Below are positions 12,243 through 47,680 of a stretch of DNA of 64,000 nucleotides, one piece after another. Both the position numbers and the translations under genes were made by a program. How positions within the stretch are numbered: the first letter of the stretch is position 1; every line of letters starts with the position of its first letter. Source of the DNA: an uncultured delta proteobacterium (GTDB taxonomy: Bacteria; Desulfobacterota; Zymogenia; Zymogenales; Zymogenaceae); the NCBI GenBank assembly GCA_963792965.1, contig CAWBYW010000018.1, positions 64,001 to 128,000 of the forward strand, read 5' to 3'. The notes below the pieces were generated by a model that had not been told where the DNA came from, did not search any database, and saw only the letters and a program-made list of their open reading frames with translations.

Positions 12243-12244
12243 CT

Positions 12245-28463: not shown

Positions 28464-29987
28464 ATGACCGAACGACACGTCCCCATGGACCGTGAGCTTT
28501 CAGGAAAGATGGCCCATTCCCTGTTCTGGGTGGGGATCAGCTCCCTCTTTTCGCGGTCGTTCACGATGCTGACCACGCTGGTCCTGGCGGGGATCCTCTC
28601 CCCGGACGCCTTTGGGGTCATCTCCTTGGCAAACCTCATCACGGCGGCGCTCGGGCTCTTCCGCGACTTCGGGTTGAGCCAGGCCATCATCTATCAGAAA
28701 AAGAAGGTCGGCCAGGCGGCCGACACCGCCATGCTCCTCTCGGTGTCGGTGAGCGTAGTCTTGTTCCTGATCGGGTTTCTGATCGCGAAACCCGCGGCCG
28801 ATTTCTTTCGCAACCCGGCGGTCGAAGACGTGGTGCGGGTGCTCCCCTTTTCGCTGGTCATCACCGCTTTTTCGACGATCCCCGCGTCCTTGCTCGAAAA
28901 GGAGATGGTTTTCAAGAGACGGGCGCTGCCGGAGATCCTCTCGTTTGCCACCTACTTTGTCGTCTCCGTGACCCTGGCCCGGCTCGGATTCTCATACTGG
29001 AGCATCATCTTCGGATATATGGCCCTCTGTATTGTCGGCCTCGTGGCCACGTTCGCCGTTTCCCCGTGGCACCCCTCGCTCAGATTTCACCTCTCCGTCC
29101 TGCGGGAGATGGTCGGGTTCGGCTCATATGCCATGTTCAGCACGATCACGGTCTTCATCATCCGCAATGTCGACAGCTTCAGCGTCGGGCGTATCCTCGG
29201 CACGACACCGCTCGGGTTCTATGACCTTGCCTACCGCATCGGCAATGTCACGACTACGCAGATCACCCACGTGGTCGGCAAGGTGGCCTTCCCCGCGTAT
29301 GTGAAGATGGGCCGGGATATCGAGATTGTTCGTGGCGCCTACCTCAAGGCCTACCGGTGGCTCTCGCTTGTGACGATTCCGGTCACGTGCGGGATCATCA
29401 CCTTTGTCCCCTCTTTTCTCCACGTCTTTTACGGCAACAAATGGGACGAGGCGATCGTTGCCGCGCAGGTTATCGCGCTCTACGGCCTCACCCGGGGGCT
29501 CTTCTCCCACGCGGGCGGGGTCTTCATGTCGTTCGGCAGGGTCAACGAGCTCTTCCTGATCACCCTCGGGCAGCTTGTCGTCCTGGCTGTCGCCATCTAT
29601 CCCGTCGTCGCTCATTTTCAGCTCGTCGGGCTTGCCGCGCTGCTGGCTGTCCTCAATTTCTTCACGGTTATCGTTGCCGCCGTGCGAATCAATATCTTCC
29701 TCCCGCGGACCATCGGTCGGTATCTCACAATTTCATTCCCCCACCTTGTCGTGGCTCTGGTGACAATTCCCCTTCCGGCCCTGCTCTGGTCCCGGTTTGT
29801 GGGCGATATCGGTCTCCTTTCGCTCATTGGGCTGATTGTCTGTTGTAGTGTTCTCTACGCGGCCGTGACGATCAACAGGGAACGGGGAATAATCGGAGAA
29901 ATAAAGGGGTGGCTCTCGGCGCTGAGAAGCTCCGGCGGCGGACCGGCAATGCCCGGAGGGGACGGCGACTATCTGCGCGACCGATGA
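28464..29987 (+). CDS. wzx: Wzx/WzxC-type polysaccharide flippase
   Basis: LAGILSPDAFG, DFGLSQAII, LGFYDLAY, KVAFPAY; ~13 TM. Confidence 0.88.
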   Translation: MTERHVPMDRELSGKMAHSLFWVGISSLFSRSFTMLTTLVLAGILSPDAFGVISLANLITAALGLFRDFGLSQAIIYQKKKVGQAADTAMLLSVSVSVVLFLIGFLIAKPAADFFRNPAVEDVVRVLPFSLVITAFSTIPASLLEKEMVFKRRALPEILSFATYFVVSVTLARLGFSYWSIIFGYMALCIVGLVATFAVSPWHPSLRFHLSVLREMVGFGSYAMFSTITVFIIRNVDSFSVGRILGTTPLGFYDLAYRIGNVTTTQITHVVGKVAFPAYVKMGRDIEIVRGAYLKAYRWLSLVTIPVTCGIITFVPSFLHVFYGNKWDEAIVAAQVIALYGLTRGLFSHAGGVFMSFGRVNELFLITLGQLVVLAVAIYPVVAHFQLVGLAALLAVLNFFTVIVAAVRINIFLPRTIGRYLTISFPHLVVALVTIPLPALLWSRFVGDIGLLSLIGLIVCCSVLYAAVTINRERGIIGEIKGWLSALRSSGGGPAMPGGDGDYLRDR

Positions 29988-32638: not shown

Positions 32639-32656
32639 TTGGCCTGATACTTGCTT
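32639..32656 (+). promoter_or_regulatory. Sigma54 (-24/-12) promoter
   Basis: TTGGCCTGATACTTGCTT: GG-N10-GC spacing with TTGC. Confidence 0.75.
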
Positions 32657-32882: not shown

Positions 32883-33710
32883 ATGTATGAGAAATATTGG
32901 GGATTGGTCGAACCCCCCTTCGAAAATGTCCCCGATCCGTCATTCCTGTATGAGTCTCCTCAGCATAAAGAGGCGCTGTCCCGGATGCTCTACGGCATAT
33001 CCCGCAGAAAGGGGTGCATCATGCTCTCCGGAGAGGTCGGCAGCGGCAAAACAACGCTTGCCCGCACCCTGATCCAGAGCCTTCCGAAGGACAAGTACGA
33101 GGTGGCCATTATCGAGAATCCACGGCTCACCTCTTCCCTCTTCATCCATGAGATCATCTACCAATTCGTCGGTCAGTCGGAGAGCAAGAACAAGGTCGAT
33201 CTCCTCCACTCGCTCAACCGGGCCCTCTTCAAGAACCTCGCCGAGGAAAAAGACTCGATCATCATAATCGACGAGGCCCAGCTTATCCAGGATAAATCGA
33301 CATTCGAGGAATTGAGGCTCCTCCTCAACTTCCAGTTGAACAACCGCTTCCTCCTCACGCTGATCCTCATGGGGCAGCCGGAGCTGAGAGACGTCGTCAA
33401 CTCGACGCCTCAGTTCGAGCAGCGGGTCGCTATCAGATACCATCTGACGCACCTCACGTTTGAGGAAACCGTCAAATATATCGGTTTTCGACTGAAGCGG
33501 GCGGGTCTGTCAAAGAACGTCTTCACTACCGAGGCCATGGAGAAGATCTACGCCTATTCCGGGGGGATTCCCCGAAAGATCAATAATATATGCGACATGA
33601 GCCTTCTGATCGGGTGGAGCCAAAAAGCCACGTACGTTGACTCGAAGATCATCACCAACCTCATAGACGAGAGCAAAAATGGTAAGGATATCAGACATTA
33701 TCAAGGATGA
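32883..33710 (+). CDS. ExeA/GspA-family AAA ATPase (ATPase domain only)
   Basis: MYEKYWGLVEPPF..PDP.FLY, GEVGSGKTT, IIDEAQ, GQPEL, SGGIPRKIN. Confidence 0.92.
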   Translation: MYEKYWGLVEPPFENVPDPSFLYESPQHKEALSRMLYGISRRKGCIMLSGEVGSGKTTLARTLIQSLPKDKYEVAIIENPRLTSSLFIHEIIYQFVGQSESKNKVDLLHSLNRALFKNLAEEKDSIIIIDEAQLIQDKSTFEELRLLLNFQLNNRFLLTLILMGQPELRDVVNSTPQFEQRVAIRYHLTHLTFEETVKYIGFRLKRAGLSKNVFTTEAMEKIYAYSGGIPRKINNICDMSLLIGWSQKATYVDSKIITNLIDESKNGKDIRHYQG

Positions 33711-34740
33711 GGACCTGTTCGGGAAGTCGGACGTAAAGAATAAGAAGAGCGACAAGATCATCATCAGTGAAACCCTGACCGCCGACGATATCATCGGAGG
33801 TCGAATATCCGACGGACTGAGGTCCCCCACCACGATGGAGGAGGAAGAGGCGAAAATATTCCTGGGGAAGATCTACGCCGCCCTCGAGAAGGCGTATGCC
33901 GTCGTGAAAGAGGGGAAAATCTTCGGGGTCCAGCCATTTGAGACGCTCGCGGAAAAATTCGTCGATTCCATCGGAAAATACGACAATATCTTCATGTTGG
34001 CGGCTTATAAAGACTACGAAGAGACCGATCACGTCAACAACTGCCTCTGGACGGCTCTCATCGCAGTCAAGATAGGGAGACGCCTCGGGCTCGGGAAAAA
34101 GGAGCTCATCGAGCTTGCCCTCTGCGGCTTTTTCCACGATATCGGCCAGGAGCGCCTCAACAACGGTGTTCTCGTCAAGCATGGGGAGCTGACCGGCCCA
34201 GAGCGCGAGGAGGTTCGGAGGCATCCCGAATACGGCAGGGATATCCTGTTTTCCCTCGGGGAACCGCACCGCTATATCTCGGATACGGCTCTTCAGGAAC
34301 ACGAGCGGCTGGACGGATCCGGATATCCGTCGGGGCTGACCGGCGGGGAGATTTCTCTCTACGCCAAGATCATCGGTCTTGCCGACACCTACGAGGCGAT
34401 GACCCACTCGCGGCCTTACCATACGCGCAAGCTCCCGCTCTTCGTCATCAAGGAGATCGTCGAGAAGATGAGGGAGCAGTTCGATACGAAAGTGATCAAG
34501 GCCTTCCTCGAGGAGATCACGATGTTTCCGGTCGGGAGTTTCGTCCGGCTCAACAACCGGGAGGTGGGGAGGGTCATCGCCGCCATGAAGGGGGCGCACT
34601 TCCGCCACGTGGTGCAGATCCTCTTCGGGCCGGACGGTGAGCGGCTCATTAAACCCAAGGCGATTAACCTCATGGAGGCCCATCTCCTCTACATTACGGA
34701 GCCCGTTGACGAACGAAATCTAAGAAGAGACACGATATGA
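33679..34740 (+). CDS. HD-GYP domain protein
   Basis: FFHDIG, HPEYG, EHERLDGSGYPSGL, ADTYEAMT..RPY. Confidence 0.88.
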   Translation: MVRISDIIKDEDLFGKSDVKNKKSDKIIISETLTADDIIGGRISDGLRSPTTMEEEEAKIFLGKIYAALEKAYAVVKEGKIFGVQPFETLAEKFVDSIGKYDNIFMLAAYKDYEETDHVNNCLWTALIAVKIGRRLGLGKKELIELALCGFFHDIGQERLNNGVLVKHGELTGPEREEVRRHPEYGRDILFSLGEPHRYISDTALQEHERLDGSGYPSGLTGGEISLYAKIIGLADTYEAMTHSRPYHTRKLPLFVIKEIVEKMREQFDTKVIKAFLEEITMFPVGSFVRLNNREVGRVIAAMKGAHFRHVVQILFGPDGERLIKPKAINLMEAHLLYITEPVDERNLRRDTI

Positions 34741-35418
34741 AGACACGACATCTCATCATCTTATGCCCTTACGGCGCTCATGGCGGCGTCATGCGCCGGG
34801 ACCGGCGGCATCCACGCCAATACGGTTCCGTCCAAGCCCGAGGACGCCGTCCGTTACCAGCACCGGATCATACCCGGTGACAGCATCCACATTACCCTGT
34901 GGGAGGTGGATCAGCCCAAGGAGATCAACGCCCAGGTCAAGAACGACGGCACGATCGATATCATGTTCATAAAGGGTCTCAAGGTCATGGGGCTCACCGA
35001 AGAGGAGCTCAATACGTTCCTGACCAAGGAGCTCTCTTTCTACTACGTGAACCCACAGTTCACGGCGTCGCTCAATGCGTACGTTTATCTGCTGGGAGAA
35101 GTCAAAACCCCGGGCGCCTACACCTTTGAAAAGGGCCAGAGCCTTGTGGCGGTCCTGGCCGTCGCCGGCGGACCGACCAAAGACGCGAAGCTCAGAAACA
35201 CCCTCATCATCCGGGGTGACTATCACAACAATCCGACGGTCATCGTCGCCGACACGTCACGGCTGCTAAAGTCGGGGGACCTCTCCGAAAATGTCATCCT
35301 CCAGGCGGGCGACATAATCTATGTGCCGTCCAAGGTAATAGCGGACGTAAACTACTACATCACGCAGATCACCCCCCTCCTGGATTTATTCCTGCTGGGC
35401 GCGGTGTTCGGTATGTGA
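34737..35418 (+). CDS. wza: Polysaccharide export lipoprotein, Wza/SLBB (apparent frameshift in signal peptide at ~34767)
   Basis: ATGA-coupled MKTRHLIILC joins LTALMAASCAG lipobox after removing one C; IIPGD, DGTI, LGEVKTPG, LQAGDIIYVP. Confidence 0.82.
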
Positions 35419-35529
35419 ATGAGGAGTGTTCTCGCGTATCGGCTGTCTCGAACTCGGAAAGTAGTGCCTATCGGGCTCGAGAGCGGTATAGAGGCGAAAG
35501 ATTTATTCACTTAAAACGGTAACTCACCC

Positions 35530-37800
35530 ATGCCCCAATATGAGATTCAGCTGAAAGACCTCATCCGGATCCTCAAGAAACGGAGAAAGATCGTCCTTTT
35601 CTCGATGGTCACCCTCGCGGTCCTGAGCGTCATCTTTGCCAAGATCCAGTCCCCCACACAGTTGTACCAGTCCATTTCAAAGGTACGGTACGACCAGACG
35701 CGGTCCCTGGCGGGGATAACCACGCCGATCTACTACTTCTCTCCCTACGACAACATCAATTCTCAGACGAAGATCATCACAAGCTACCCTGTCCTGGAGA
35801 TGACCGCCAAGAAGCTCGGCTATTTGAACAAGAATCTGAGATCTCAGGATATCCTCAGTTCCAAGGAGCATATGTCCGTCGTCTCGGGCCTTGAAGGCCA
35901 GATCGGCACGGAGATCGAGGAAAACACGAATATCATCGACATCAAGGTCACCTCGGTCGATCCCAAGATGGCCGCCGATATCGCCAACGCGGTGGCCGAA
36001 AGCTACCGTGACTACAACCGCGACCAGATTAACAAGCGGACGATAGATACGAAGGACTTCATCGAAAAGCAGTTGAGCCTCGTCAGCCAGCGGCTTAAGG
36101 AAGCCGAGGAGAATCTGAAGAATTTCCAGCAGAATCGAAATATCGTGGTGCTCGACACCCAGACCAATAACGACCTTCAGTCGCTGGCGCTCCTCCAGAC
36201 CGACTACGATAAGCTGGACCGGGAAAACAGCAACCTGCTGGCATTCAAGAACAAGGTTACGTCAAAGAATGTGAGCGGCAAGGAGCTCTTCCCCATCCTT
36301 GAGATGGACGTCAACAGCAACCTCTACACCCTGAATGCCGAGCTGCAAAAGCTCCTCTTGGAGCGCGACGAGCTCATGACGGTATACACCATCAATCACC
36401 CCAAGGTCGCCGACCTGAATGATAAGATCAACAATATCCTCGCCCTGATCGGCTCGGATATCAACACGCGGGTCTCTTCCAACAGGGTACGCATGGGGAC
36501 TCTCAACCACGATATCGACAAGTATAAGGGACGGGCCGCCGAATATCCCGATGATAACCTTACGCTGGCCAAATATCAACGGGAGGTGAAGCTACAGAGT
36601 GACCTCTACGCCGAGCTTGCCTCGAAGTACCAGGAGATCCTCATCCAGGAGTCCGGAATGGTTGAGGAGGTGGGTATCGTGGCGCCCGCTCTCGTTTCTG
36701 AATTGCCCATCAATCCGCCGAAGATATTCTCCTCGTTCCTCATCGGCCTTCTCCTGGGCCTCTTCCTCGGCGTCTTCTTTGCAATCATTATGGAGAACCT
36801 CGACACCTCCATCGGCGCCATCGAAGACGTGGAGAGCTACCTCGGCATCCCCGTCCTCGGGGTGATCCCCTACATCGAGCCATACGTTGAGGAACAAAAG
36901 GGCGAAGAAAGGATCGAAAGGCCGACCGGAGATAAGCGCAAGGAGTCTCTCCTCGTCATCTCGATGAGCCCCACGTCGCTCGCGACGGAGGCCTACCGCT
37001 CTCTCAGGACGAATATTATCTTCCTGAACCAGGAAAAAGGGATCAAGACCTTCATGATCACCAGCTCCTCGCTCCAGGAGGGGAAGACCATCACGTGCAT
37101 TAACACCGCCATCACGCTGGCCCTCGGCGGATACAGGACCCTTCTGGTGGAAGCGGACCTGCGCCGTGCCACAATTGCAAAGACCCTCGGAATCGAGCGT
37201 TCGCCCGGCCTCTCGGAGGTGATCCTCGGGATTGACTCGGCAAAAGAGGTGACACGGGATATTAACGACATCATCCTCGGCGGGCTCGAAATGGACACCC
37301 TTATGAAGTCGCCCGAGCTTGCCAACCTCTTCGTCATCACCTCCGGCGCCTTCCCGACAAACCCCGCAGAGCTGCTGAGCTCAAAGCAGATGATGAAGTT
37401 CATCGAGGAGGCCAAGGCCGAGTACGACTTCATCATCTTTGATAGCACACCGGTGTTGCCTGTTACGGACGCCGTGTTACTGTCTCAGAAAGTCGATGGC
37501 GTGATTATCCTCTACGAGGTGGGGAAGATCGCCCGCGGGGTGCTCAAGAGGACCAAGTCCCACCTCGACAACGTGAAGGCCAACGTGCTGGGGGTCATAC
37601 TCAACAACGTAAGGCCGGAGTATGGGCCCGACTATTACAGCTACCATTACCAGTATTATTACGAGGAGGGCAAGCATCCCCGGAAGCTCGGCGAATGGGA
37701 AAAGATCAAGGAATATTTCTCGAAGGATAGCCTGAGGCGGTTTGCCTCAGACACCCGAGAGAAACTCTCGAAGACTTTTCAAAAAAAGGAAATGCGGTAG
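35530..37800 (+). CDS. wzc: Polysaccharide co-polymerase / BY tyrosine kinase
   Basis: Two TM segments flanking a coiled coil; EAYRSLRTN, Walker A SSLQEGKT, ADLRR, DSTPV; Tyr cluster YYSYHYQYYY. Confidence 0.93.
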   Translation: MPQYEIQLKDLIRILKKRRKIVLFSMVTLAVLSVIFAKIQSPTQLYQSISKVRYDQTRSLAGITTPIYYFSPYDNINSQTKIITSYPVLEMTAKKLGYLNKNLRSQDILSSKEHMSVVSGLEGQIGTEIEENTNIIDIKVTSVDPKMAADIANAVAESYRDYNRDQINKRTIDTKDFIEKQLSLVSQRLKEAEENLKNFQQNRNIVVLDTQTNNDLQSLALLQTDYDKLDRENSNLLAFKNKVTSKNVSGKELFPILEMDVNSNLYTLNAELQKLLLERDELMTVYTINHPKVADLNDKINNILALIGSDINTRVSSNRVRMGTLNHDIDKYKGRAAEYPDDNLTLAKYQREVKLQSDLYAELASKYQEILIQESGMVEEVGIVAPALVSELPINPPKIFSSFLIGLLLGLFLGVFFAIIMENLDTSIGAIEDVESYLGIPVLGVIPYIEPYVEEQKGEERIERPTGDKRKESLLVISMSPTSLATEAYRSLRTNIIFLNQEKGIKTFMITSSSLQEGKTITCINTAITLALGGYRTLLVEADLRRATIAKTLGIERSPGLSEVILGIDSAKEVTRDINDIILGGLEMDTLMKSPELANLFVITSGAFPTNPAELLSSKQMMKFIEEAKAEYDFIIFDSTPVLPVTDAVLLSQKVDGVIILYEVGKIARGVLKRTKSHLDNVKANVLGVILNNVRPEYGPDYYSYHYQYYYEEGKHPRKLGEWEKIKEYFSKDSLRRFASDTREKLSKTFQKKEMR

Positions 37801-37820
37801 CCCGCAGGAAGGCCGTCATC

Positions 37821-39224
37821 GTGGGAACAGCTCGACATACATCGGAAGGGAATCTGACCAATTTCTCCACCTCCATCGCCCTCGGCATCATGGTCATCAT
37901 GATCTCCGTCCTGGCCTTCTTGATTTCCGGCGGGATGCAGCTCAAGATGGTGGTCATGGTGGTCGGCATCATCGCCACCGCCATCTGTTTTTTCAACACC
38001 GAGATGGCCCTCTACCTCATCCTCTTTGCCATGCTCTTTTCGCCGGAGTTTTCCTTTGGCGGAGAACTGGCGGAGGGTAGGAAGCTCGTCCTTAGGGTCG
38101 AGGATATTATCATCGTCGTCACCTTCTTTTCGTGGGTGGTCAAGACCGTCCTCTACGAAGGTGTGGGTCTGATCGTCAAGACCCCCCTGAACCGGCCCAT
38201 TAAGCTCTACGTCTTCGTCTCCTTTCTCTCCACCTTCCTGGGGGCGCTTATCGGCAAGGTGAACCTCTCCTCCGGGCTCCTCTACGTCTTTAAGTATATG
38301 GAGTTTTTCCTGGTCTACTTTATGTTCGCCAACAACATTACGGACCGGGACCAGGTCAAGCGGTTTATCATTGCGGCCTTTATCGTGGCGATCTTCACGG
38401 CGCTCTACGCCGTCGCCCAGATCCCCTTCGGGGGCAGGGTCACCGCTCCCTTTGAGGGCGAAAGCGGCGAGCCCAACACGCTCGGAGGGTATCTCATCCT
38501 GATTATCTCGATAGCCGCCGGACTCTGGTTTGTCATGCGGGATCAGCGGCTGAAAATTGCGCTGGCCTCGCTCGTGGTCCTTATGACTGTTCCGTTCCTC
38601 TTTACCCTCTCGCGTAGCTCGTACGTCGCCGCCATCCCGATGTTTGCGGCCTTTTTCATCTTCACCAACAAGAAACTGCTGCTCTCCTTTGTCCTGCTCG
38701 CCTTTGTGCTGGCGGCGCCCATCCTTCTTCCCGAAAAGATCAAGGAGCGGGTCTCGGAAACCTTCGTGCCCGACCCCGGTTTTGCCCAGACCCAGACCAT
38801 CGGAAACGTCGGGTTTGACACCTCCACGTCGGAACGGATCTCATCGTTTAAGTATTCCATTGAGAAGTGGCAAAAGCGGCCCATCTTCGGATGGGGCGTT
38901 ACCGGCGTCGGCATCATCGACAGTACCTATTTCCGCCTCCTGGCCGAGGTAGGCCTCGTGGGACTGGCCGCCTTTCTATATCTGATCTCCGTCATCGGCC
39001 TGCACCTCTACCATATCTTCAAGAAGTCGCAGGATCCGCTCTTGAAAGGGCTTGCCCTCGGGATGCTCGCCGGGACCGCGGCGCTCCTCGGGCATAGCGT
39101 GGGCGCGGCATCCTTCATCATCGTCAGAATCATGGAGCCCTATTGGTTCTTCATGGCCTGTATCGTTGCCCTCTACCAGATCGAACAGAGTTATCCGCCC
39201 GCTCCACAAAAGGAACTCGCGTGA
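37821..39224 (+). CDS. O-antigen ligase / Wzy polymerase family protein
   Basis: Polytopic; EPNTLGGYL, TLSRSS, RPIFGWG, RLLAEVGLVG. Confidence 0.85.
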   Translation: MGTARHTSEGNLTNFSTSIALGIMVIMISVLAFLISGGMQLKMVVMVVGIIATAICFFNTEMALYLILFAMLFSPEFSFGGELAEGRKLVLRVEDIIIVVTFFSWVVKTVLYEGVGLIVKTPLNRPIKLYVFVSFLSTFLGALIGKVNLSSGLLYVFKYMEFFLVYFMFANNITDRDQVKRFIIAAFIVAIFTALYAVAQIPFGGRVTAPFEGESGEPNTLGGYLILIISIAAGLWFVMRDQRLKIALASLVVLMTVPFLFTLSRSSYVAAIPMFAAFFIFTNKKLLLSFVLLAFVLAAPILLPEKIKERVSETFVPDPGFAQTQTIGNVGFDTSTSERISSFKYSIEKWQKRPIFGWGVTGVGIIDSTYFRLLAEVGLVGLAAFLYLISVIGLHLYHIFKKSQDPLLKGLALGMLAGTAALLGHSVGAASFIIVRIMEPYWFFMACIVALYQIEQSYPPAPQKELA

Positions 39225-40399
39225 GATTTGGCTATTTTCTCAAGATGCTCCCCTCCCGTATGTCGACTTTCATTCACCGGGAGATCGCCTGGCTCCGGTC
39301 GCAGGGGCACGAGGTATACCTCTTCCCCGTCTGGGACATCGACCCAAACGACCTCCCCGAGACTATAACGGGGTCCCCCGACTATATCATCGCTCGTACT
39401 TCGCTCGTATCGTTGGGCTGGGTGCCTGCCCTCGCTCGCTTCTCCCTTACCTCTCCGCTCAGGGTCGCGCGGATAGTCGCCGGCTACCGCCGTCTCTACG
39501 GGATCGCGTTTGTCCTCAAATCGATCGAGGCCGCCCGACTGATTCAAAGAAAGAGGATCGAGCGTATCTGCGCCCACACCCTTTCACTGGCCGCTTCGCG
39601 GGCACGCATCTGTTGGCTCCTGACGGAGATTCCCTACAGCATTACCGTCCACGGCTCGGATCTCCTCCTCTTCCCCCCCCGGGACGGCCCGGAATTAATC
39701 CGGGATGCACACGTCGTCATCACCCCCACGGAATTTAACAAGAAGCGGCTTCAGGAGATAGCCGGCCCGTCCGCGAAAGAAAATATCAGGGTAATCCCCT
39801 ACCCGGTGGATACCGACTTCTTCCGGCCCGAAACAACGAAGCTCGCGCGTATGGGAGAGATGCGACTGATCACGGTGGGGAGGCTCCATCCGGTGAAGGG
39901 ACACCGGTATATCCTCCGGGCCGTCGATACGTTGCGGCGGGAGGGAGTCGCCCTTTCCCTGAAAATCGTGGGCGAGGGGGAGGAAAGGACCGGGCTCGAG
40001 GCCGAAGTGAAAAAGCTGGGCCTCGAGAGCTACGTAGTATTCACCGGCGCCCTCTTCGGCGCCGAGCTGCGGGACCAGTTGGCCGCGTCGGACATCTTTG
40101 TCCTGGCCAGTCACTCCGAGGGCCTCCCGGTATCGATGCTGGAGGCAATGGCGACGGGCCTCTGCGTAGTGGTTCCCGCCGTGACCGGGATCCCGGAAAT
40201 GGTGCGCGACGGACAAAACGGCCTCCTCTTTACCCCCCAGGACCCCGTCGATCTGGCCGAGAAGCTGCGCCATGCCGCTGGCGACGCGGGCCTCAGGCGT
40301 CGGCTCGGGAAAGAGGCGCGCACCTCCGTCGTCTCGCGGTGCAGCGGCGATGCGGTCTACCGAGAGATCCTGCGTGCCGTCGGGGGGGTCAAGGAATGA
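39221..40399 (+). CDS. GT4 glycosyltransferase
   Basis: TFIHREI, TVHGSD, VGRLHPVKG, EGLPVSMLEAMATG. Confidence 0.9.
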   Translation: MRFGYFLKMLPSRMSTFIHREIAWLRSQGHEVYLFPVWDIDPNDLPETITGSPDYIIARTSLVSLGWVPALARFSLTSPLRVARIVAGYRRLYGIAFVLKSIEAARLIQRKRIERICAHTLSLAASRARICWLLTEIPYSITVHGSDLLLFPPRDGPELIRDAHVVITPTEFNKKRLQEIAGPSAKENIRVIPYPVDTDFFRPETTKLARMGEMRLITVGRLHPVKGHRYILRAVDTLRREGVALSLKIVGEGEERTGLEAEVKKLGLESYVVFTGALFGAELRDQLAASDIFVLASHSEGLPVSMLEAMATGLCVVVPAVTGIPEMVRDGQNGLLFTPQDPVDLAEKLRHAAGDAGLRRRLGKEARTSVVSRCSGDAVYREILRAVGGVKE

Positions 40400-41550
40400 C
40401 GGTCGCGGATCTCACATTCGCCTCTAACGCGCGCACGATCACGAGCCATGCCGTTCGGGACACGTGGGCCTCGATGATGGGCCAGCCCCCCCACCCGCTC
40501 GATATTCCGAGCGGTCCGCTCCCCGCCGACCTTATCCCCTTTTCGGCGGCAAAGGGCTCCCTCGGGCCCGTGATGCAGGCACTTTCCCGCTGGGGGCTCG
40601 CGGGGCGCTTGGAAGAAAGGGAGCGAACGAGGGCCGAGGTCGCGCTCGTCCGCGCGGGGATGTCGGTGGCCGCGATGCGGTCGGAGCTCGCCCGGATACT
40701 CGGGGCGTGCGCCGCGGAGCAGGTCGATGTGGTTATCCTGAAGGGCCACGATCTCCTCGTCAGGTACTACGAGAGCGATACCATCCGCCCCGTCACCGAC
40801 GCCGACCTCCTCATCAGGCGACGTGACTACCCGAAGCTCGGTAGGATACTCACCGACGCCGGCTATCGCACCCCGGGGGGAGAGAGGACGAGCGTCTGGT
40901 CGCGGGGTGGTTTCATCATCGATGTTCATTTCGCCTTCGTCAACGACGTGAGGAACCCGATGAGCGCATTCCTGCCGCAGATCCCGGCCGGGGAGATCTT
41001 CGCTCGCGCCGAGAAAAGGGAGATCGAAGGCGCCGCATACCTCTCACCCGACCCCGGCCACAGCCTCATCATCACCGCGCTCCATGCGATGACCCACTCC
41101 TACCTGAAGGACTACTGGTTCTTGGACGCCGGGACGCTCCTGATCAGGAACGCCGAGCCGTCGTTTGTGGATCGGTGTCGGGCACTCGCGGAAGAACATC
41201 GGCTGACCGGTGTGCTGGGCCCCATGCTCTGGGCCCTCCGGGAGCACTTCGCCTTCAGGCCGGACTCGGGCAGGGGCAAGGAATATCGCGTCTCGCTCCC
41301 CGTCCGGCGTCTCATCGGTGCGGCGATGCGAAGCACCGACTACCTCTTCTTCGGCGATCTCCTGCTCGGATTGTCTGTTGACAGCTACAAAAAAAAGTTC
41401 TATTATTTTAAGGAGATGGCCTTCCCCCACCGGGACGTCGTCGCGCGGGAGAGGGGTGTCGGCATCACAGGGGCGGCCCCCTTATTTCTTTCCCGATCCC
41501 TGCACCTGGTGAGGTCAGGATTTCACATCCTCATCAAAGGACGGCGATAA
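40396..41550 (+). CDS. Nucleotidyltransferase family protein (NTP_transf_5-like)
   Basis: VVILKG..L..YY....RPVTDADLLI, IDVH, LHAMTH..WFLD. Confidence 0.8.
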   Translation: MTVADLTFASNARTITSHAVRDTWASMMGQPPHPLDIPSGPLPADLIPFSAAKGSLGPVMQALSRWGLAGRLEERERTRAEVALVRAGMSVAAMRSELARILGACAAEQVDVVILKGHDLLVRYYESDTIRPVTDADLLIRRRDYPKLGRILTDAGYRTPGGERTSVWSRGGFIIDVHFAFVNDVRNPMSAFLPQIPAGEIFARAEKREIEGAAYLSPDPGHSLIITALHAMTHSYLKDYWFLDAGTLLIRNAEPSFVDRCRALAEEHRLTGVLGPMLWALREHFAFRPDSGRGKEYRVSLPVRRLIGAAMRSTDYLFFGDLLLGLSVDSYKKKFYYFKEMAFPHRDVVARERGVGITGAAPLFLSRSLHLVRSGFHILIKGRR

Positions 41551-42167
41551 TGGCCGTATTCCTTCGCGCGGCGTCCCGATTTCACACGATCATACGGAAT
41601 TTCGTAAGGCTCTACCTCCTCTTTAACGAGAAAGAAGTGTGTTCCGTCCGGGATTCGATTGTCCGCTGCGAATGTGAAGGTGACGAGATGGTACTGTTTG
41701 GCCTCGATGACCGTAGGGCGCATCTCCTCAACCATACCGCCGCCCGAGTTCTCGGGCTTACCGACGGGAGGAGGTCCGTCGGAGATATCGCCGCGCGTAT
41801 CGCCTCCGATTTCGGGGAGAAAAAGGGGGTCGTCGGGCGCGACGTGAAAAGGATCTGTCGGGACCTTTATCTCAAAGGGGTGATCACTATGGCGCACGAA
41901 CGTTCGTATGTACCGAAGATAAAAAAAGAGACCGTCGTCCGCGAAGAGGACGACGGAGCATGTATCTTTGACCCGCTGACCGATGAGCTTTCGGCGATCA
42001 ACGAGACAGGTAGAATCGTCCTGAAACAGATGAACGGGAAAAACAGTATCGCACAGATCGCGAAGAAGGTCAGGGCTGTCTTCCCCGACCAGGAAGAGGA
42101 GAAGATATACCGGGACGTTGAGGCGTTCATAGATGAGCTGAAGAATCGGGGCTTTCTTACCGTATGA
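41550..42167 (+). CDS. Tandem PqqD/RRE peptide-binding protein (second domain ScmD-like)
   Basis: Two units: EGDEMVLF..LNHTAARVLGLTDGRRSVGDI..L.LKGVI and REEDDGACIFDP..INETGRIVLKQMNGKNSI..L.NRGFL. Confidence 0.88.
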   Translation: MAVFLRAASRFHTIIRNFVRLYLLFNEKEVCSVRDSIVRCECEGDEMVLFGLDDRRAHLLNHTAARVLGLTDGRRSVGDIAARIASDFGEKKGVVGRDVKRICRDLYLKGVITMAHERSYVPKIKKETVVREEDDGACIFDPLTDELSAINETGRIVLKQMNGKNSIAQIAKKVRAVFPDQEEEKIYRDVEAFIDELKNRGFLTV

Positions 42168-42232
42168 TCCGCCTGTCGAGGCCCCAGATAATCAGCTTCT
42201 CTTCAAGACGTACGATATAAGGGGAACTCATC

Positions 42233-43528
42233 GTGGTAAACAGATCAGTCCTAAAGAAAGAAAAGGGAAACACTCCCATCCCCACAAGCATGCTGCGCGC
42301 ACCGCTGTCCCTCTTTATCTCGATCACCTCGCGCTGCAACCTCTCGTGCCGCCATTGCGCCGTCTATTCGGACGACCTTACGTATGACCCGGATCTCACC
42401 ACCTCACAATGGCTCTCCTTCATCGACCAGATCGTCCGTCTCAGGGTCTTCCGCGTCAAGATCAGCGGCGGAGAGCCGTTCGCGCGAAAGGACATCTTCG
42501 ATATCCTCGATCACCTTTTCACGCAGCCGATCCGTGTCTCGATTAATACCAACGCCATGCTTATCGATGAGGATGCCGCCCGGCATCTCTCGTCGTACGG
42601 GCCAAAGCTCTCCGACCTCATGGTGAGCATTGACGGGGGCTCCCCCGAAACCCACGACGCCCTTCGGGGGCGAGGGGCATTTCGGGAGATGCTGAAGGGG
42701 GCTGGGCATCTGGTCGAACACGTGAGAAAACTCACCGCCTATTGCACGGTGACCCGCCTCAATTTCAGGGAGCTCGGGGACGTGGCGCGTCTGGCCTCGG
42801 AAATCGGGATAAGTGGTCTAAAATTTAACGACCTTATCCCCCTGGGGCGTGGGCTTAAATACCGGGATGATCTTGATCTCACGCGGGAGGAGAAACGAGA
42901 AACCACTACACGCCTCAAGGCGCTGCAAAAGACGTATCCCTTCATATCGGGGACCCTCTTTGAGGTAGACGAGATATTCGAGAAGATCGGGTCGACAGCT
43001 CCCGAAAAGCTGGCGGAGTCGTCGGAAATGGAACACTGCCTTTCGGGATGCGGCGCGCTCAACAACGAATGCGCCATCAGGCCCGACGGATGGGCGACCC
43101 CCTGTGACCGCCTCCCGGAGCTCACGGCGGAGAATATCCTTGAGGTGCCGCTCGACGTGATCTGGAGGGAGTCGCAGACGTTTACGGAATTCCGCCGGCG
43201 TTTTACCACCCCTATCACAAGCCTCAGCACGTGCTCGGATTGTCAGTTTGCCCCGGTTTGCACAGGAGGATGCGCCGCGTCGGCCTTTGCGGCGTACGGC
43301 ACGACGCTTGCGCGCGACCCCTCGTGCTGTTACAGGCTCTACGAGGAGGAGACGGCTGATGCGCCGCATAAATCGACGCGAATATCCTCTCCGTCGCGCG
43401 TACCTCTATGTTTCCGGCGGGTGCAACCTCCGCTGCGCCCATTGCTGGATATCTCCGGCCTTCGTGGCCGAGGGCCGTGTACAACGAGATCAGCTGACGG
43501 CCGCCGACGTAAAGAAGGTCATCGATGA
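42233..43528 (+). CDS. Radical SAM/SPASM peptide maturase, ScmE-like (true stop probably ~43359)
   Basis: CNLSCRHC, SGGEPF, SIDG; SPASM CGA..ECAIRPDG..TPC...CSDC.FAPVCTGGC. Confidence 0.9.
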   Translation: MVNRSVLKKEKGNTPIPTSMLRAPLSLFISITSRCNLSCRHCAVYSDDLTYDPDLTTSQWLSFIDQIVRLRVFRVKISGGEPFARKDIFDILDHLFTQPIRVSINTNAMLIDEDAARHLSSYGPKLSDLMVSIDGGSPETHDALRGRGAFREMLKGAGHLVEHVRKLTAYCTVTRLNFRELGDVARLASEIGISGLKFNDLIPLGRGLKYRDDLDLTREEKRETTTRLKALQKTYPFISGTLFEVDEIFEKIGSTAPEKLAESSEMEHCLSGCGALNNECAIRPDGWATPCDRLPELTAENILEVPLDVIWRESQTFTEFRRRFTTPITSLSTCSDCQFAPVCTGGCAASAFAAYGTTLARDPSCCYRLYEEETADAPHKSTRISSPSRVPLCFRRVQPPLRPLLDISGLRGRGPCTTRSADGRRRKEGHR

Positions 43529-44447
43529 GGGCCGTCCGATAGGCCTTCTCAGCGTCAAGCTCACCGGGGGGGAACCGTTTATCAATGACGAGATATTCGA
43601 GATAATTGAGCTGATCGGCGGCCGGGAGATCTCGATGTTTATCGAAACCAACGGGACCCTGATCGACCGGGATACCGCGGCCTTCTTGAAAAGACAGGGG
43701 ATAAACTCCGTCAGCGTGAGCGTCGACAGCAATCGCTCCTCCTTTCATGATGCCTTCCGCGGGGTGGCGGGGGCGCTGGACGGTGCCGCCTCGGGCGTAG
43801 AGCACCTCGTATCCGAGGGTATATCGGTGCAGGTCATCATGAGCCTGGTCAGGGAAAACTCCCGTGACATCGAAGGTCTTATTGATTTGGCAAAGCGGCT
43901 CGGAGCGCATTCGGTGAAGATCAACCCGGTGACCCCGATCGGAAGGGGCGGAGTCCTGTCCGACCGAGGCGACACGCTGGGGGTCGAGGAACTCCTCGAA
44001 CTCTCACCGTGGGTGGAGGGGCAGCTCTCGCGTCAGTACGGGATCGAGACCTTCTTCACCGTTCCGTCCGTCTTTAAGCCGATCGGCCACCTGTTTGACG
44101 AAAGGAACGCCCAGTGCCATATCCTGACGATCATCGGCATCCTTGCAAACGGCGATGTTTCGATTTGCGGCATTGGGAGGGAAGTGCCCGCCCTCGTGAT
44201 GGGAAATATCCGTACGGATAACCTGGAACAGATCTGGCGGGAAAGCTCCATCCTCGGTGATCTCAGACAGATCGTGCCGAATAACTTGGAGGGAATCTGC
44301 GGTCGGTGCATCATGAAGGGGATATGCATGGGGTCGTGCCGGGCGGACGCCTATGTCCTTTCGGGGAGCCTTGCGGCGCCTCACTGGATCTGCCGGGAGG
44401 CGCTCGATAAAGGACTCTTCCCGAAAAATAGACTGTTAAGCCAATGA
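43359..44447 (+). CDS. Radical SAM/SPASM peptide maturase, ScmF-like
   Basis: YPLRRAYLYVSGGCNLRCAHCWI.P, SVKLTGGEP, ETNG; CHILTIIGILANGDVSICGIG...CGRC.MKGIC.GSCRA. Confidence 0.92.
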   Translation: MRRINRREYPLRRAYLYVSGGCNLRCAHCWISPAFVAEGRVQRDQLTAADVKKVIDEGRPIGLLSVKLTGGEPFINDEIFEIIELIGGREISMFIETNGTLIDRDTAAFLKRQGINSVSVSVDSNRSSFHDAFRGVAGALDGAASGVEHLVSEGISVQVIMSLVRENSRDIEGLIDLAKRLGAHSVKINPVTPIGRGGVLSDRGDTLGVEELLELSPWVEGQLSRQYGIETFFTVPSVFKPIGHLFDERNAQCHILTIIGILANGDVSICGIGREVPALVMGNIRTDNLEQIWRESSILGDLRQIVPNNLEGICGRCIMKGICMGSCRADAYVLSGSLAAPHWICREALDKGLFPKNRLLSQ

Positions 44448-45400
44448 TTGCGAGGATCGGAGGCATATCGATCAAGCTTTCCGTCCCTGGGGACCGGGCG
44501 TCGTCCGAAAGGATTCTGGAAGAGGTCAACGGCAGACTATCCGGCTTCACCGCTAAAAGGGGACGGCATAACCTCATGCTTACGATCAGGCCGGTGGACG
44601 ATCTCCCCTGGGAGGAGATACTTTGCAAAGAAGACCTCATACGGGCGCGCCGAATCGTGGATGTCCTGAGAAGGAGGTTCCCTCTTACGAGGATACCGTT
44701 TGAGAATATGCATACGAGCAATCCATCGCACATAAAGGGAAGAATTTCCTCCGACCTCCTCTCCCGCTTCTGCAGGGGAGGTGTTTCGGTCATCCCGCAG
44801 GGCGGTTTCCTCCTGGCCGTTGACCACCGAAGCGGATACGGAGAGGTCTTCGTTAAGCGGCGCGAAGAGGGAGGCCTCGTCCCCTCGTTCATGAGCGCCC
44901 TGCAGGGCGCCCTCGGTCTGTGCGCCTCGTACCATGACGCCCTCATGCTCCACGCGAGCTCCCTTGCGATTGACGGGAGGGGATTTGTCTTTATCGGCGC
45001 ATCGGGGGCCGGCAAAACTACAATAGCCTCGTCGGTCGCCCCGGAGGCGGTGCTCTCAGACGATGGGTCCTGGTGTTCGCGGATGGGCGGTAGATTTTAC
45101 CTGTATCGAACGCCCTTTTCCCAGATAGACACTGGGCCCCCTCTCGCAGACCGGACTCCTCTTGACCGGCTCCTCTTTCTCGGGAAGAGCGAGCACAACT
45201 ATATCGCCGGCCTCTCGCCGGGCCGGGCCATGACAATGCTGCTTCTCAATCACATCCACTTCTTCCGATATATGGACCGGGAGGGAGCATTTAAGGCCTT
45301 CGGCCTTGTGGAGGAGCTATGCCGGAAGAACCGGGCCTTCACCCTCTTTTTTAATCGGAGTTTTAATCCGATGTCATTTTTCAGGGGAATAATCGAATGA
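44444..45400 (+). CDS. HPr-kinase-related P-loop protein, ScmC-like
   Basis: MLHASSL, GASGAGKTT, LSDD, TPF. Confidence 0.8.
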   Translation: MIARIGGISIKLSVPGDRASSERILEEVNGRLSGFTAKRGRHNLMLTIRPVDDLPWEEILCKEDLIRARRIVDVLRRRFPLTRIPFENMHTSNPSHIKGRISSDLLSRFCRGGVSVIPQGGFLLAVDHRSGYGEVFVKRREEGGLVPSFMSALQGALGLCASYHDALMLHASSLAIDGRGFVFIGASGAGKTTIASSVAPEAVLSDDGSWCSRMGGRFYLYRTPFSQIDTGPPLADRTPLDRLLFLGKSEHNYIAGLSPGRAMTMLLLNHIHFFRYMDREGAFKAFGLVEELCRKNRAFTLFFNRSFNPMSFFRGIIE

Positions 45401-45618
45401 AAGAAAAAAAGACGTATGAGCCGCCGATGGTCATAGATCTTCAGGTCGACTATACCCAGGCGGTGGGACAGTCACGCTGCAACGCCGGGCCCACAGCCAC
45501 CGGGCAGTGCACCACCGGGCCGCAGGCGAACCGCACATGTGGCACGGGCACCCAATTTACGCCGTTCTGCGGAAACGGCCAAACCGCCAACGGCTGCAAC
45601 ACCGGTAAGACTCCGTAG
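45397..45618 (+). CDS. Putative RiPP precursor peptide (73 aa)
   Basis: ATGA-coupled to kinase gene; KKTYEPPMV..L leader motif; five CxxG at residues 28,38,48,58,67; Thr/Gly-rich core. Confidence 0.85.
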   Translation: MKEKKTYEPPMVIDLQVDYTQAVGQSRCNAGPTATGQCTTGPQANRTCGTGTQFTPFCGNGQTANGCNTGKTP

Positions 45619-45656
45619 CGGCAGCTGTTCCGACCGACTTCAAAGGAGCAGGAGCG

Positions 45657-46100
45657 GTGAGGCAGTTTAGACGAATCCGATTCCGTGGATACAGCATGTA
45701 CCCGGCGCTGCGCCCGGGCGACACGCTGATCCTTCGCCCAGTGTTGAGCGGCGAGTGTGCCAGGGGTGATATCGTCTGCGTCCCCGGCGAACGCAATTTC
45801 ACCACCCACCGCGTCGTCGAGATCAATCGGAGCTCGGCCGGTCCCATGCTCATCACCAAGGGAGACAACCTCCCCTACTTCGATTCGCCCATCGTCCTCC
45901 CCTCGGAAGGGATTCATCGGGTCGCCATGATCTGCCGCCCGGGACGGGGACCCACCAGACCCCGTTTCGGGAGGACACGTGCCCTCCTCTCCCGAAATAA
46001 CCTGACGGTAGGTATCATACAGGGGAGGATCGGGCGCCTCATAAGGGGCACGTATGGACGTGTTCGGAATTTACTTAATAGGAAACCCAACCGCACATGA
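45657..46100 (+). CDS. S24/S26 signal-peptidase-like serine peptidase lacking an N-terminal TM anchor
   Basis: AAAGGAG/AGGAG SD; GYSMYPALRPGD, RGDIV, THRVV, LITKGDN. Confidence 0.85.
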   Translation: MRQFRRIRFRGYSMYPALRPGDTLILRPVLSGECARGDIVCVPGERNFTTHRVVEINRSSAGPMLITKGDNLPYFDSPIVLPSEGIHRVAMICRPGRGPTRPRFGRTRALLSRNNLTVGIIQGRIGRLIRGTYGRVRNLLNRKPNRT

Positions 46101-47680
46101 ACCGGATCGATAAATCCCTCTTCCGCGTCTGCCAGGTGACCCTGGCAAACCTCCTGAAAACTACGGCCGCAAGGTTCAGGGATCGGGAGGCGATCTCTTG
46201 TTCTGTAACGGGCCGACGCTTCTCGTTTCGAGAGGTAAACGAGCGGATGAATCGGCTCGCCAATGCCCTCCTCTCGTTGGGGGTCAAGAAAGGAGATCAT
46301 TGCGCGTTTCTCTGCCGCAACCGGGCCGAGACGGGAGAGATCTACGGCGCCCTCATCAAAATCGGGGCGATCGCCGTACCGCTGCACTGGAGCCTTGAGA
46401 TTGAAGAGATCATCGACTACCTCACGTTTACCCAGGCCCGGCATTTCCTGTTTGAGGATTTCTATACCGAGGCCGCTATCGTGATCAAAAAGCGCCTCAG
46501 GCGCATCAAGACGTTCGTCTGCATCGGGAAACAGGAGACCGACTTTGCCCTCCCCTACGAGGAGCTGATCAGCGGATCGTCCCCCGTTCTTCCCTTCATC
46601 GACGTGAATGCCGACGACGTCCAGGGCATCGATACAACCTCCCGGACGACCGGTGTCCATAAGGTCTATCCCCTCACCCACGCAAACGGCCTGAGCGCCG
46701 TCATGTTCTTCACGTCGATCCACGAGTTGACGAAAGATGACGTCATCCTGACCCTCTTCCCCCTCTACGGGCGCGTGGGCCTTGCCTGGTATGGTGCGGG
46801 ATTTTTGACCGGGGCCCGCAACGTCCTGTTTCAACCGGACATGACCGATCCATCCGGCATTTTGCGGATCATACAGGACGAGCGCATCACCATAACCAAC
46901 TGGACCCCGATTGTCGCGTCTATCCTCCTCACGCTCCCGGATCTGGATCGATACGACCTCTCGTCCCTCAGAGCGATCTCTTTTTCGGCAAGCCGCTTTC
47001 CCGTCGACCTGCAAAAGGAGGTGAGGGATCGCATCTGCCCCGACATCTACGAATATTACGCCATGCAGGAGGCCGGCATCATTGCCCACATGGGGCCCGA
47101 GGACAAGCGGAAAAATCCCGCCTCCGTGGGAACCCTCTGCTTCGGGACCGACGTGCGCATCGTGGACGAGGCCGGGAAAGATGTGGCCACCGGCGAAATC
47201 GGCCAAATCATCTGCAGGGCCCTCTCCGCCGCACCAGGGTATTTCAGGAATGACGCGCAGACGCGATCGGCTTTCAGGGACGGCTGGTTTTACACCGACG
47301 ACTGGGGGCGGTTTGATGAAGACCAGTTCTTCTATTTCTTAGGCAGGAGGGAGGACATGATCGTGACGGGGGATACGACGGTCTTCGCGGCGGGTATCGA
47401 AGAGGTCCTTACCGCCCACGAGGGGGTCCTGGACGCCGCGGTCATCGGGCTGCCGGATGATACGCTCGGTGAGGCCGTGACGGCGGTGATAGTGAGAAAC
47501 CCGAAGGGAGACGTGACGAGAGAGGCGCTGACCGTCTGGTGTCGGGAGAGGCTTACCCCGCACCAGGTGCCCCGGCGGATCATCTTTTCCGCGATGCTCC
47601 CCCGCAACGCCGTCGGCAAGGTAACCAAGTATGTGCTGGTCGAGAGGTTCTCCCGTGAGGGCGCTCACACCGACGGATAG
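46097..47680 (+). CDS. AMP-binding acyl-CoA synthetase-like protein with degenerate motifs
   Basis: NRLANAL.SLGVKKGD, TTSRTTGVHK, YAMQE, DGWFYTDD.G, GRREDMI, LPRNAVGKV. Confidence 0.85.
   Translation: MNRIDKSLFRVCQVTLANLLKTTAARFRDREAISCSVTGRRFSFREVNERMNRLANALLSLGVKKGDHCAFLCRNRAETGEIYGALIKIGAIAVPLHWSLEIEEIIDYLTFTQARHFLFEDFYTEAAIVIKKRLRRIKTFVCIGKQETDFALPYEELISGSSPVLPFIDVNADDVQGIDTTSRTTGVHKVYPLTHANGLSAVMFFTSIHELTKDDVILTLFPLYGRVGLAWYGAGFLTGARNVLFQPDMTDPSGILRIIQDERITITNWTPIVASILLTLPDLDRYDLSSLRAISFSASRFPVDLQKEVRDRICPDIYEYYAMQEAGIIAHMGPEDKRKNPASVGTLCFGTDVRIVDEAGKDVATGEIGQIICRALSAAPGYFRNDAQTRSAFRDGWFYTDDWGRFDEDQFFYFLGRREDMIVTGDTTVFAAGIEEVLTAHEGVLDAAVIGLPDDTLGEAVTAVIVRNPKGDVTREALTVWCRERLTPHQVPRRIIFSAMLPRNAVGKVTKYVLVERFSREGAHTDG

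Follow-up and report, generated by a model that had tools for sequence, protein, structure and literature searches.

Peptide clusters that pair an HprK kinase with a PF14907 transferase are among the closest described relatives of the cassette analyzed here, which lies in a 64,000-nucleotide stretch of DNA (the window; positions 64,001 to 128,000 of contig CAWBYW010000018.1) from an uncultured delta proteobacterium. As described in the accessible portions of PMC13381572, linear polyphosphorylated peptide (LPP) clusters (lppA-K-B-S-D-N) encode a SpI peptidase, a RiPP (peptide made by the ribosome and modified after its translation) recognition element (RRE), an HprK kinase, a PF14907 transferase, and an MsbA-like pump; they occupy capsular loci of Bacilli and are co-induced with an exopolysaccharide gene. 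The LPP kinase polyphosphorylates Ser3 of the core and not Thr, and heterologously expressed LppN showed no activity, for which the lack of an outside partner was suggested as a reason. According to the same portions, paeninodin clusters with the same set of kinase, nucleotidyltransferase, and peptidase also occupy capsule loci, the final LPP or paeninodin product could not be found in the native host, and the function of kinase/PF14907 RiPPs and the reason for their capsule-locus position were stated in 2026 to be open (PMC13381572). The accessible text of PMC6993621 reports that PsmN is needed for mono- and dihexosylation of a phosphorylated lasso peptide, which supplies the published precedent for phosphorylation by an HPr-type kinase followed by glycosylation that the first-pass annotation of the window had invoked.

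In the window, a run of genes leads from polysaccharide export genes into a RiPP cassette. The first-pass annotation took the whole run for a single operon and proposed that the peptide travels with or anchors the polymer. We arrive at a different reading, which we consider probable: the product would be a peptide with Cys bridges and a phosphate on Ser26, to which the nucleotidyltransferase adds a decoration with help from the polysaccharide pathway; it would be co-regulated with exopolysaccharide and would not anchor the polymer.

A SynChlorMet-like cassette and its precursor

The precursor gene (45397..45618, + strand) encodes 73 amino acids with a YEPP leader, A-V-G at the leader end, a lone Ser26, and five Cys in CxxG repeats spaced by 10, 10, 10, and 9 residues; it matches the ScmA model TIGR04252 at 16.5 bits (E 0.007; cut-off 35). 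A pattern search of the fetched loci recovered 64 distinct homologous precursors that combine a YxxP leader and repeated Cys motifs, which upholds the earlier assignment to the RiPPs. Across this set, Gly lies three residues past 88% of the 369 Cys, and Cys-Cys spacing is 10 or 11 in 203 of 305 gaps; the leader and CxxG repeats of the window precursor match those of precursors located beside ScmF genes that score over the cut-off. The cores are hypervariable in the fetched loci, and those of L190 and L193 are repeat cores rich in Lys, which could hold anionic polysaccharide noncovalently. The earlier emphasis on the peptide being Thr rich did not hold up: its Thr content (24%) is the highest of the 64 (median, 8%), and LPP kinases refuse Thr by the account cited above. 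A Thr-rich O-glycosylation target, not being conserved, is ruled out. So is a universal Ser at the core start, which is family specific, with Ser or Thr at the Ser26 position in 7/7 family precursors and 24/64 overall.

The first cassette gene encodes a PsmN/LppN-like nucleotidyltransferase of family PF14907 (NTP_transf_5; 40396..41550, + strand), in which G117, R131, D135, D137, and H178 are invariant across 45 homologues. Its structural model (pLDDT 91) has its best fold matches in ANT(2'')-Ia (Z 12.2, root mean square deviation 2.9, 158 aligned) and MenT1 (Z 12.1). It is followed, also on the + strand, by a tandem PqqD/RRE protein (41550..42167; PF05402 twice; TIGR04248 at 48.7 bits, cut-off 100). 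With G000 denoting the genome of this DNA and G012, G054, G091, G125, G157, G187, G247, and G275 its family relatives, this protein joins in one chain two RREs that G012, G091, G054, and G157 encode by separate genes. Two radical S-adenosylmethionine (SAM)/SPASM enzymes come next on this strand, one ScmE-like (42233..43528; best match TIGR04250, 214.7 bits, cut-off 400) and one ScmF-like (43359..44447; best match TIGR04251, 358.8 bits over the full model, cut-off 400). The HprK-like kinase at the ScmC position (44444..45400, + strand; weak TIGR04352) has a His, a Walker A motif (GASGAGKT), and a DD pair that align with true ScmC proteins, which also match HprK models; TIGR04249 (cut-off 125) was not matched at E 0.01, and the G012 orthologue scores 17.8 bits. 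Catalytic motifs are intact in both the kinase and the nucleotidyltransferase.

Beyond the precursor lie, on the + strand, an anchorless S26 leader peptidase of the SipW/SpI-like type (45657..46100; TIGR02228 at 46 bits, cut-off 51.85), which keeps its Ser, His, and Asp, and an AMP-dependent ligase (46097..47680; PF00501). The ligase directly follows the peptidase in 6/9 family cassettes (the window, G012, G091, G054, G187, and G275), one of the nine being cut off before the ligase position, and it is lost in G125 and G247. Its P-loop, intact in groups g2 and g3, is altered in the window's clade (TSRTTG versus TSGTTG); judging from these sequences, the ligase is a candidate for peptide acylation or a decaying gene. 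Searches of solved structures with kinase, RRE, and nucleotidyltransferase profiles gave no useful match. A DUF5838 protein stands beside related cassettes (L047:11486-12352 and L052:792-1673), and the one in L047 is similar to LynF/TruF prenyltransferases (80.7 bits, under the cut-off); the peptides of these cassettes are possibly prenylated variants.

The cassette resembles SynChlorMet (TIGR04248 to TIGR04252) in its two SPASM radical SAM enzymes with best matches to ScmE and ScmF, its PqqD/RRE protein, the HprK-like protein at the ScmC position, and its Cys/Gly precursor; a PF14907 nucleotidyltransferase and an S26 peptidase are also frequent in canonical SynChlorMet cassettes. It differs in that the counterparts of ScmE, ScmF, ScmD, ScmC, and ScmA all score under the curated cut-offs, and in its fused tandem RRE, its extra AMP ligase, its lack of an ATP-binding cassette (ABC) exporter, and the Wza/Wzc/Wzy block in front. 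Because the gene set is complete even though the scores are below the cut-offs, we classify it as SynChlorMet-like. No paper naming SynChlorMet was found in the literature searched, which mostly left out subscription papers and bioRxiv supplements; among the matches listed, ScmE and ScmF occur only in unrelated uses and the TIGR numbers are absent. The cassette also recalls the ranthipeptide pair PapB/PapA, in which a SPASM radical SAM enzyme reportedly acts on repeated CX3D motifs to form thioethers, in that SPASM radical SAM enzymes are paired with repeated short Cys motifs; the window repeat is CxxG with a period of 10 to 11, and there are two enzymes.

As far as the accessible text of PMC13381572 describes LPP clusters, the cassette shares with them a SpI/SipW-like peptidase with Ser-His-Asp, the RRE, the HprK kinase, PF14907, a YxxP leader, and a capsular-locus position, and a Ser lies near the core N terminus in both peptides (Y+18 in LPP, Y+19 in the window). 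It departs from them in its two radical SAM enzymes, Cys-repeat core, and non-Bacillota host, and in having no MsbA-like transporter in 32883-47680 or in the eight family loci as fetched. The published LPP motif YxxPxVLxHQxIxFETxxS is not matched either, as just YxxP is shared, along with a Ser that in the window comes one residue later, and HQxIxFET is missing. Judged by sequence, the cassette shares the LPP set of kinase, PF14907, RRE, and SipW-like peptidase but fails the SynChlorMet cut-offs and two LPP features. With the paeninodin/pseudomycoidin type (PsmK, PsmN), as presented in the accessible part of PMC6993621, it has in common the HprK kinase and an uncharacterized NTP transferase that contains a DxD motif and has a fold like that of ANT(2''); phosphorylation and then hexosylation, as in that type, would be its predicted order of modification. 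The macrolactam synthase and B2 peptidase families are not among the genes of the window, and the Ser lies near the core N terminus, whereas in the paeninodin type it is at the C terminus.

Linkage of ScmF cassettes to polysaccharide genes

Three sets of ScmF loci from outside the family were compared with control regions. Set A holds 30 loci from an even draw across phyla; set B holds 37 of 80 metagenome loci, the other 43, shorter than 7 kb, having been dropped; and set C holds 20 of the 21 loci newly obtained by class draws centered on genomes already showing linkage, and is biased accordingly. The controls are 30 regions that lie, in the set A genomes, on contigs with neighboring numbers (346 kb versus 391 kb). 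Glycan assembly genes were called, in controls as well, by Pfam at 1e-12 and by BLAST with Wza, Wzc, Wzy, and initiator references; in set C, 99 of 118 proteins were scanned with Pfam and the remainder labeled by BLAST, and some BLAST references were taken from the test loci.

Glycan genes flank 30/87 cassettes versus 1/30 controls (p = 5e-4; this and the following linkage p values overstate the significance because kin are not independent), with linked loci making up 7/30 of set A, 12/37 of set B, and 11/20 of set C. Sets A and B by themselves give 19/67 versus 1/30 (p = 0.005), and set A by itself gives a p value of 0.05. Export or assembly genes are found at 23/87 cassettes versus 0/30 controls. 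These numbers support an association that is functional and not due to chance, as the first-pass annotation had proposed. The synteny survey that it called for had a mixed outcome, for the enrichment over controls stands, while most cassettes (57/87) have no glycan gene in the fetched and often short flanks, which makes the linkage a lower bound. The controls are arbitrary contigs and not other accessory islands, and an island-hotspot effect would also fit; ScmF was not found in five distant genomes examined, and unclassified metagenome contigs are the only source of evidence from outside Desulfobacterota.

On an 82-tip ScmF tree, the linkage label changes 20 times (at least 14 changes being forced) and is not clustered, as 50 of 500 shuffles gave a count as low. 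This scatter indicates that the link has arisen and been broken again many times. At the genome level, some Wzc is present in 25/28 non-family ScmF genomes versus 232/364 others, and the window's Wzc subfamily co-occurs with ScmF (7/19 versus 21/372 non-family genomes). Within linked loci, the cassette gene nearest to a glycan gene is co-oriented with it in 24/30 cases. The nucleotidyltransferase is the cassette gene closest to the glycan genes in 13 of the 18 loci that contain it, and is co-oriented in 11, a figure that is only suggestive.

Several layouts outside the family resemble that of the window. Locus L194 (G480:C5:52000-71900), from an independent lineage, has a near-identical layout on one strand, with the order initiator, HD-GYP, ExeA, Wza, Wzc, Wzy, and then ScmF, kinase, peptidase, ScmE, nucleotidyltransferase, and ABC exporter. 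In L098, L099, L176, L188, L046, and L050, genes for a Wzb-like phosphatase, ExeA, and HD-GYP are mixed in with those of the cassette; in L098, L099, and L188, the nucleotidyltransferase gene comes first in a Wza-Wzc operon; and Wza is fused to FG-GAP repeats in L180, L190, and L194.

An ordinary secreted antagonist or signal peptide, inserted near glycan genes merely because both belong to variable surface islands and with no biochemical link between them, would account for the cassettes without a glycan gene in their fetched flanks, the hypervariable precursor cores, and the patchy distribution of ScmF, which occurs in 37/401 genomes. The LynF-like prenyltransferase of another variant (L047, below the cut-off) would also suit such a peptide. 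We nevertheless hold this account to be unlikely, in view of the close co-orientation between linked cassettes and their nearest glycan gene, the genome-level co-occurrence with one Wzc subfamily, and the parallel linkage of LPP and paeninodin clusters in Bacillota, as given in the accessible portions of PMC13381572.

Predicted promoters, family synteny, and the polysaccharide block

The 14 genes at 32883..47680, from the ExeA-like ATPase to the AMP ligase, all lie on the + strand; the widest intergenic gaps are 111, 65, 38, and 20 bp, with overlaps or short gaps elsewhere. The structural observations from which a single operon had been proposed are correct, in that the strand is unbroken, an ATGA overlap (40396-40399) couples the GT4 glycosyltransferase gene to the nucleotidyltransferase gene, and a TAATG (41548-41552) couples the latter to the RRE gene. 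No strong intrinsic terminator was found in the gene run, as the annotation had also stated; the best candidate is a 5-bp hairpin (41469-41482) that is not kept in relatives, and a terminator between the modules is not supported, hairpins there being weak and unconserved. Since the assembly is indel prone, base-level couplings in a single genome need support from relatives, which they receive, the GT4/nucleotidyltransferase coupling being TAATG in G187 and TGATG in G275.

The assembly carries many indel errors, with frameshifts in 12/63 test genes elsewhere, including matches to ftsZ, ftsA, uvrA, and polA. For this reason, two oddities of the run are treated as artifacts, with assembly error the probable cause. 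The ATG at which Wza starts (34737) and the lipoprotein signal (34737-34800) do not share the frame of the rest of the gene, the signal being intact in six relatives, and the ScmE reading frame extends 170 bp into ScmF, while the relatives' ScmE proteins stop about 50 amino acids sooner. Given the same frequency of frameshifted test genes, real pseudogenization of Wza or ScmE is not the preferred explanation.

A sigma-70-type promoter-like sequence, TTGACA-17 nt-TATTAT (11/12 consensus), lies at 41378..41406 (+ strand) in the 3' end of the nucleotidyltransferase gene. It is the top sigma-70 match within 30500-50000 and is kept, with its 17-nt spacing, in 9/9 family genomes. Among 49 invariant Ile/Val columns in three genes, the one in this promoter is the sole one with third-base T in 9/9 (next best, 4), and its two Tyr columns are the sole ones among 11 invariant Tyr with TAT in 8/9 (next best, 6). 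Because this third-base choice stands out among invariant codons, the synonymous-site conservation points to selection on the DNA itself, best read as a predicted internal promoter serving the RRE gene through the AMP ligase gene. A sigma-54 (-24/-12) promoter-like site at 32640..32654 (+ strand), 243 bp 5' of ExeA, is found in 5/5 genomes of the clade in which the two blocks are fused and in 0/5 other family genomes (background, 0.03 per 620 bp). In G187 and G275, the GT4 3' end contains a perfect TATAAT with a TTGCGC -35 (L040:10271-10340 and L045:10118-10190), a possible extra promoter for the nucleotidyltransferase by its sequence; this site is absent from the window genome.

The cassette is present in 8/9 other family genomes. 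G187 and G275 have the same layout as the window, and G125 and G247 have that layout without the genes for the AMP ligase and GT4. The export block of G157 adjoins the cassette but is divergent (cassette versus ExeA). In G012, G091, and G054, the cassette stands alone, starting at the nucleotidyltransferase next to a divergent acyl-CoA ligase gene, and the orthologous Wzc sits on another contig. The eight relatives thus include 3/8 with a stand-alone cassette and 1/8 with a divergent one. The co-oriented fusion is limited to the clade of G000 and g4 (support 100/99); the tree has no resolved order at the base of the family and is compatible with either fusion or separation as the direction of change. 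The predicted conserved internal promoter and the stand-alone cassettes of three relatives speak against the central claim of the first-pass annotation, that the cassette is the distal half of one operon. An independent promoter and terminator between the modules were what would have told against that claim; the former is predicted and conserved, and no strong example of the latter was found. The fusion in the window's clade would mainly bring the nucleotidyltransferase gene under control of the polysaccharide promoter, the remaining cassette genes keeping their own, and the two modules look like partners, not one machine.

The polysaccharide block begins with an ExeA-like AAA ATPase of polysaccharide loci (32883..33710, + strand; TIGR03015 at 246 bits, cut-off 324.5; AAA_22); no match to exosortase PF09721 was found in the genome, which is 88.85% complete. 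It continues, on the same strand, with an HD-GYP-type protein (33679..34740; HD_5, weak NF053512), a probable cyclic di-GMP phosphodiesterase; a Wza-like polysaccharide export lipoprotein (34737..35418; Poly_export and SLBB; PF02563); and a Wzc tyrosine autokinase/co-polymerase (35530..37800; TIGR01007 at 159.6 bits, over the cut-off of 108) that is the sole Wzc match in the genome. The Wzy_C-family membrane protein that follows (37821..39224, + strand; PF04932) has D-S where neighboring ligase-like proteins show H-N (by pattern match only). With His being the proposed catalytic base of WaaL/PglS in the accessible part of PMC12800693, this protein is, going by the motif, more likely a polymerase than a ligase or O-oligosaccharyltransferase. 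A PAS-domain sigma-54 enhancer-binding protein (30763..32280, + strand; Pfam Sigma54_activat, PAS), also encoded 5' of ExeA in G187, G125, G247, G275, and G054, is the likely activator of the export operon.

The last gene of the block is GT4 (39221..40399, + strand; PF00534). It comes after Wzy in G012, G091, and G217, where the cassette is elsewhere or was not found, and because the export operon of G012 and G091 continues through Wzy and GT4 into more glycosyltransferases, GT4 belongs to the ancestral polysaccharide operon and not to the cassette. It is deleted in two of the four closest relatives (G125 and G247), where a short N-terminal remnant is left (L042:9167-9290 and L043 before 9659), in frame with the nucleotidyltransferase in G125.

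The rest of the polysaccharide locus (10026..29987; Pfam) encodes a WecA-like initiator, DegT, WbqC, GT2, GT4, and GT9 glycosyltransferases, an acetyltransferase, and a Wzx flippase, and homologues of these genes come straight after GT4 in G012 and G091. The gene set of a Wzx/Wzy locus is complete within 10026-40399 (PF02563, TIGR01007, PF04932, PF13440, PF00953, and PF00534/PF00535/PF01075), which marks the upstream block, by its gene content, as an ordinary Wzx/Wzy-dependent polysaccharide assembly and export locus. It resembles group 1-like loci in its Wza, Wzc, Wzy_C, Wzx, initiator, and many glycosyltransferases and differs from them in being headed by an ExeA-like ATPase and HD-GYP protein, with a RiPP cassette directly behind. 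Several glycosyltransferase genes at 17285-23719 are broken by frameshifts. A third radical SAM/SPASM gene (14767-15918), conserved in G187 and G275, lies inside the glycosyltransferase cluster and probably encodes a sugar-modifying enzyme. At the start of the window, 208-9916 resembles what we take, from inspection of the translations, to be a hydrogenase and maturation gene cluster.

Export and the fate of the peptide

Family scans of 32883-47680 confirmed that the stretch has no ABC peptide exporter. None was found in the nine family cassettes as fetched, one of which is cut by a contig end, and the genome carries two ABC exporters that are unlinked to the cassette. Among 38 cassettes flanked on each side by 5 kb or more, an exporter is absent in 24 and present in 14, and absence does not track linkage (11/15 Wza/Wzc-linked cassettes versus 13/23 others, p = 0.33). 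That the exporter is missing because the peptide uses Wza was considered and rejected: a first count (7/7 versus 12/32) had admitted exporter-bearing loci of any flank length and comprised only 3 independent pairs, and the difference is gone once more loci are included under equal flank rules. The missing exporter, cited earlier as a sign of travel with the polymer, loses that meaning, as stand-alone family cassettes are equally without one. Sequence inspection found no secretion signal or anchor in the peptide or the peptidase, and nothing turned up in favor of the covalent anchoring or co-export with exopolysaccharide that had been envisaged.

A modified peptide retained in the cytoplasm as a regulator of polysaccharide production, acting, for example, via Wzc/Wzb, HD-GYP, or ExeA, would agree with the anchorless peptidase, with the frequent absence of an exporter, and with the insertion of ExeA, HD-GYP, and a Wzb-like phosphatase among cassette genes in an independent clade (L046, L050, L098, L176, and L188). 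The binding in question is a candidate one to predicted partners, however, the same regulators occur without the cassette in 12/19 genomes, and the exporters of 14/38 cassettes imply secretion in many lineages, so that we judge such a regulator improbable.

Still more doubtful is a surface conjugate, in which the nucleotidyltransferase, being LicD/FKRP-like, would activate or prime the phosphopeptide, which would then be joined covalently to the Wzy-dependent polysaccharide and exit via Wzx, Wzc, and Wza. In independent lineages (L098, L176, L180, L188, L190, and L194), genes for Wza, Wzc, a Wzb-like phosphatase, ExeA, and HD-GYP recur in among those of the cassette, which fits this idea, as do the exporterless family cassettes and, in the accessible text of PMC13381572, the failure to find a final LPP or paeninodin product in the native host. 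The nucleotidyltransferase model does resemble FKRP, but at Z 7.7 this match is weaker than those to ANT(2'')-Ia and MenT1, and a Z under 8 may reflect a common fold only. ABC exporters occur in Wza/Wzy-linked cassettes (L178, L185, L187, and L194) and, as noted, their absence is not tied to linkage; stand-alone cassettes have no exporter either, glycan neighbors vary widely among loci, the Wzy_C protein is without the His typical of ligases and O-oligosaccharyltransferases at the motif examined, and the peptide and peptidase are without a secretion signal or anchor on inspection. We accordingly give little credence to PF14907 as a linker that attaches a Wzy polysaccharide, by its repeat unit, to the phospho-Ser of a repeat peptide with thioether bridges. 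Were it true, SynChlorMet-like, LPP, and paeninodin-type peptides across phyla would be capsule or matrix substituents or anchors exported with the polymer, which would explain both their recurrence in capsule loci and the failure to find free final products.

The reading we favor is that of a bridged, Ser26-phosphorylated peptide made alongside the polysaccharide. In the window's clade, the module of ExeA, HD-GYP, Wza, Wzc, Wzy, and GT4 would run from the sigma-54 promoter, and the divergent SynChlorMet-like cassette would mostly be read from its own sigma-70 promoter in the nucleotidyltransferase gene. By RRE, lasso peptide, and LPP precedent, the RREs would bind the YEPP leader, and the repeat pattern suggests that cross-links, most likely Cys thioethers, are introduced into the CxxG repeats by the pair of radical SAM/SPASM enzymes. 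The HprK-like kinase would then phosphorylate or polyphosphorylate Ser26, as LppK and PsmK do their substrates, and the PF14907 enzyme, by analogy to PsmN, would add a sugar or nucleotide to the phospho-Ser, drawing on nucleotide-sugars or a partner enzyme of the polysaccharide pathway. Cleavage of the leader near A-V-G by the cytoplasmic S26 peptidase would leave a small, sugar-decorated, bridged peptide, made alongside capsule or biofilm matrix.

Several observations weigh against this reading. The surveyed loci include kin that are not independent, and set C was centered on genomes already showing linkage. The Wzc subfamily occurs without the cassette in 12/19 genomes. The nucleotidyltransferase often lies at the cassette end, and its 13/18 proximity to glycan genes is near a coin toss once clades are merged. 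The cassette has no exporter to indicate where its product acts, and a Ser or Thr at the Ser26 position is found in just 24 of the 64 precursors.

The host genomes are metagenome assembled, and the CxxG-repeat chemistry of the two radical SAM enzymes is uncharacterized in the papers searched. The capsule-locus link of kinase/PF14907 RiPPs is here extended, with a control, to a radical SAM, SynChlorMet-like branch in another phylum, and the nucleotidyltransferase is singled out as the hinge between glycan operon and peptide cassette.

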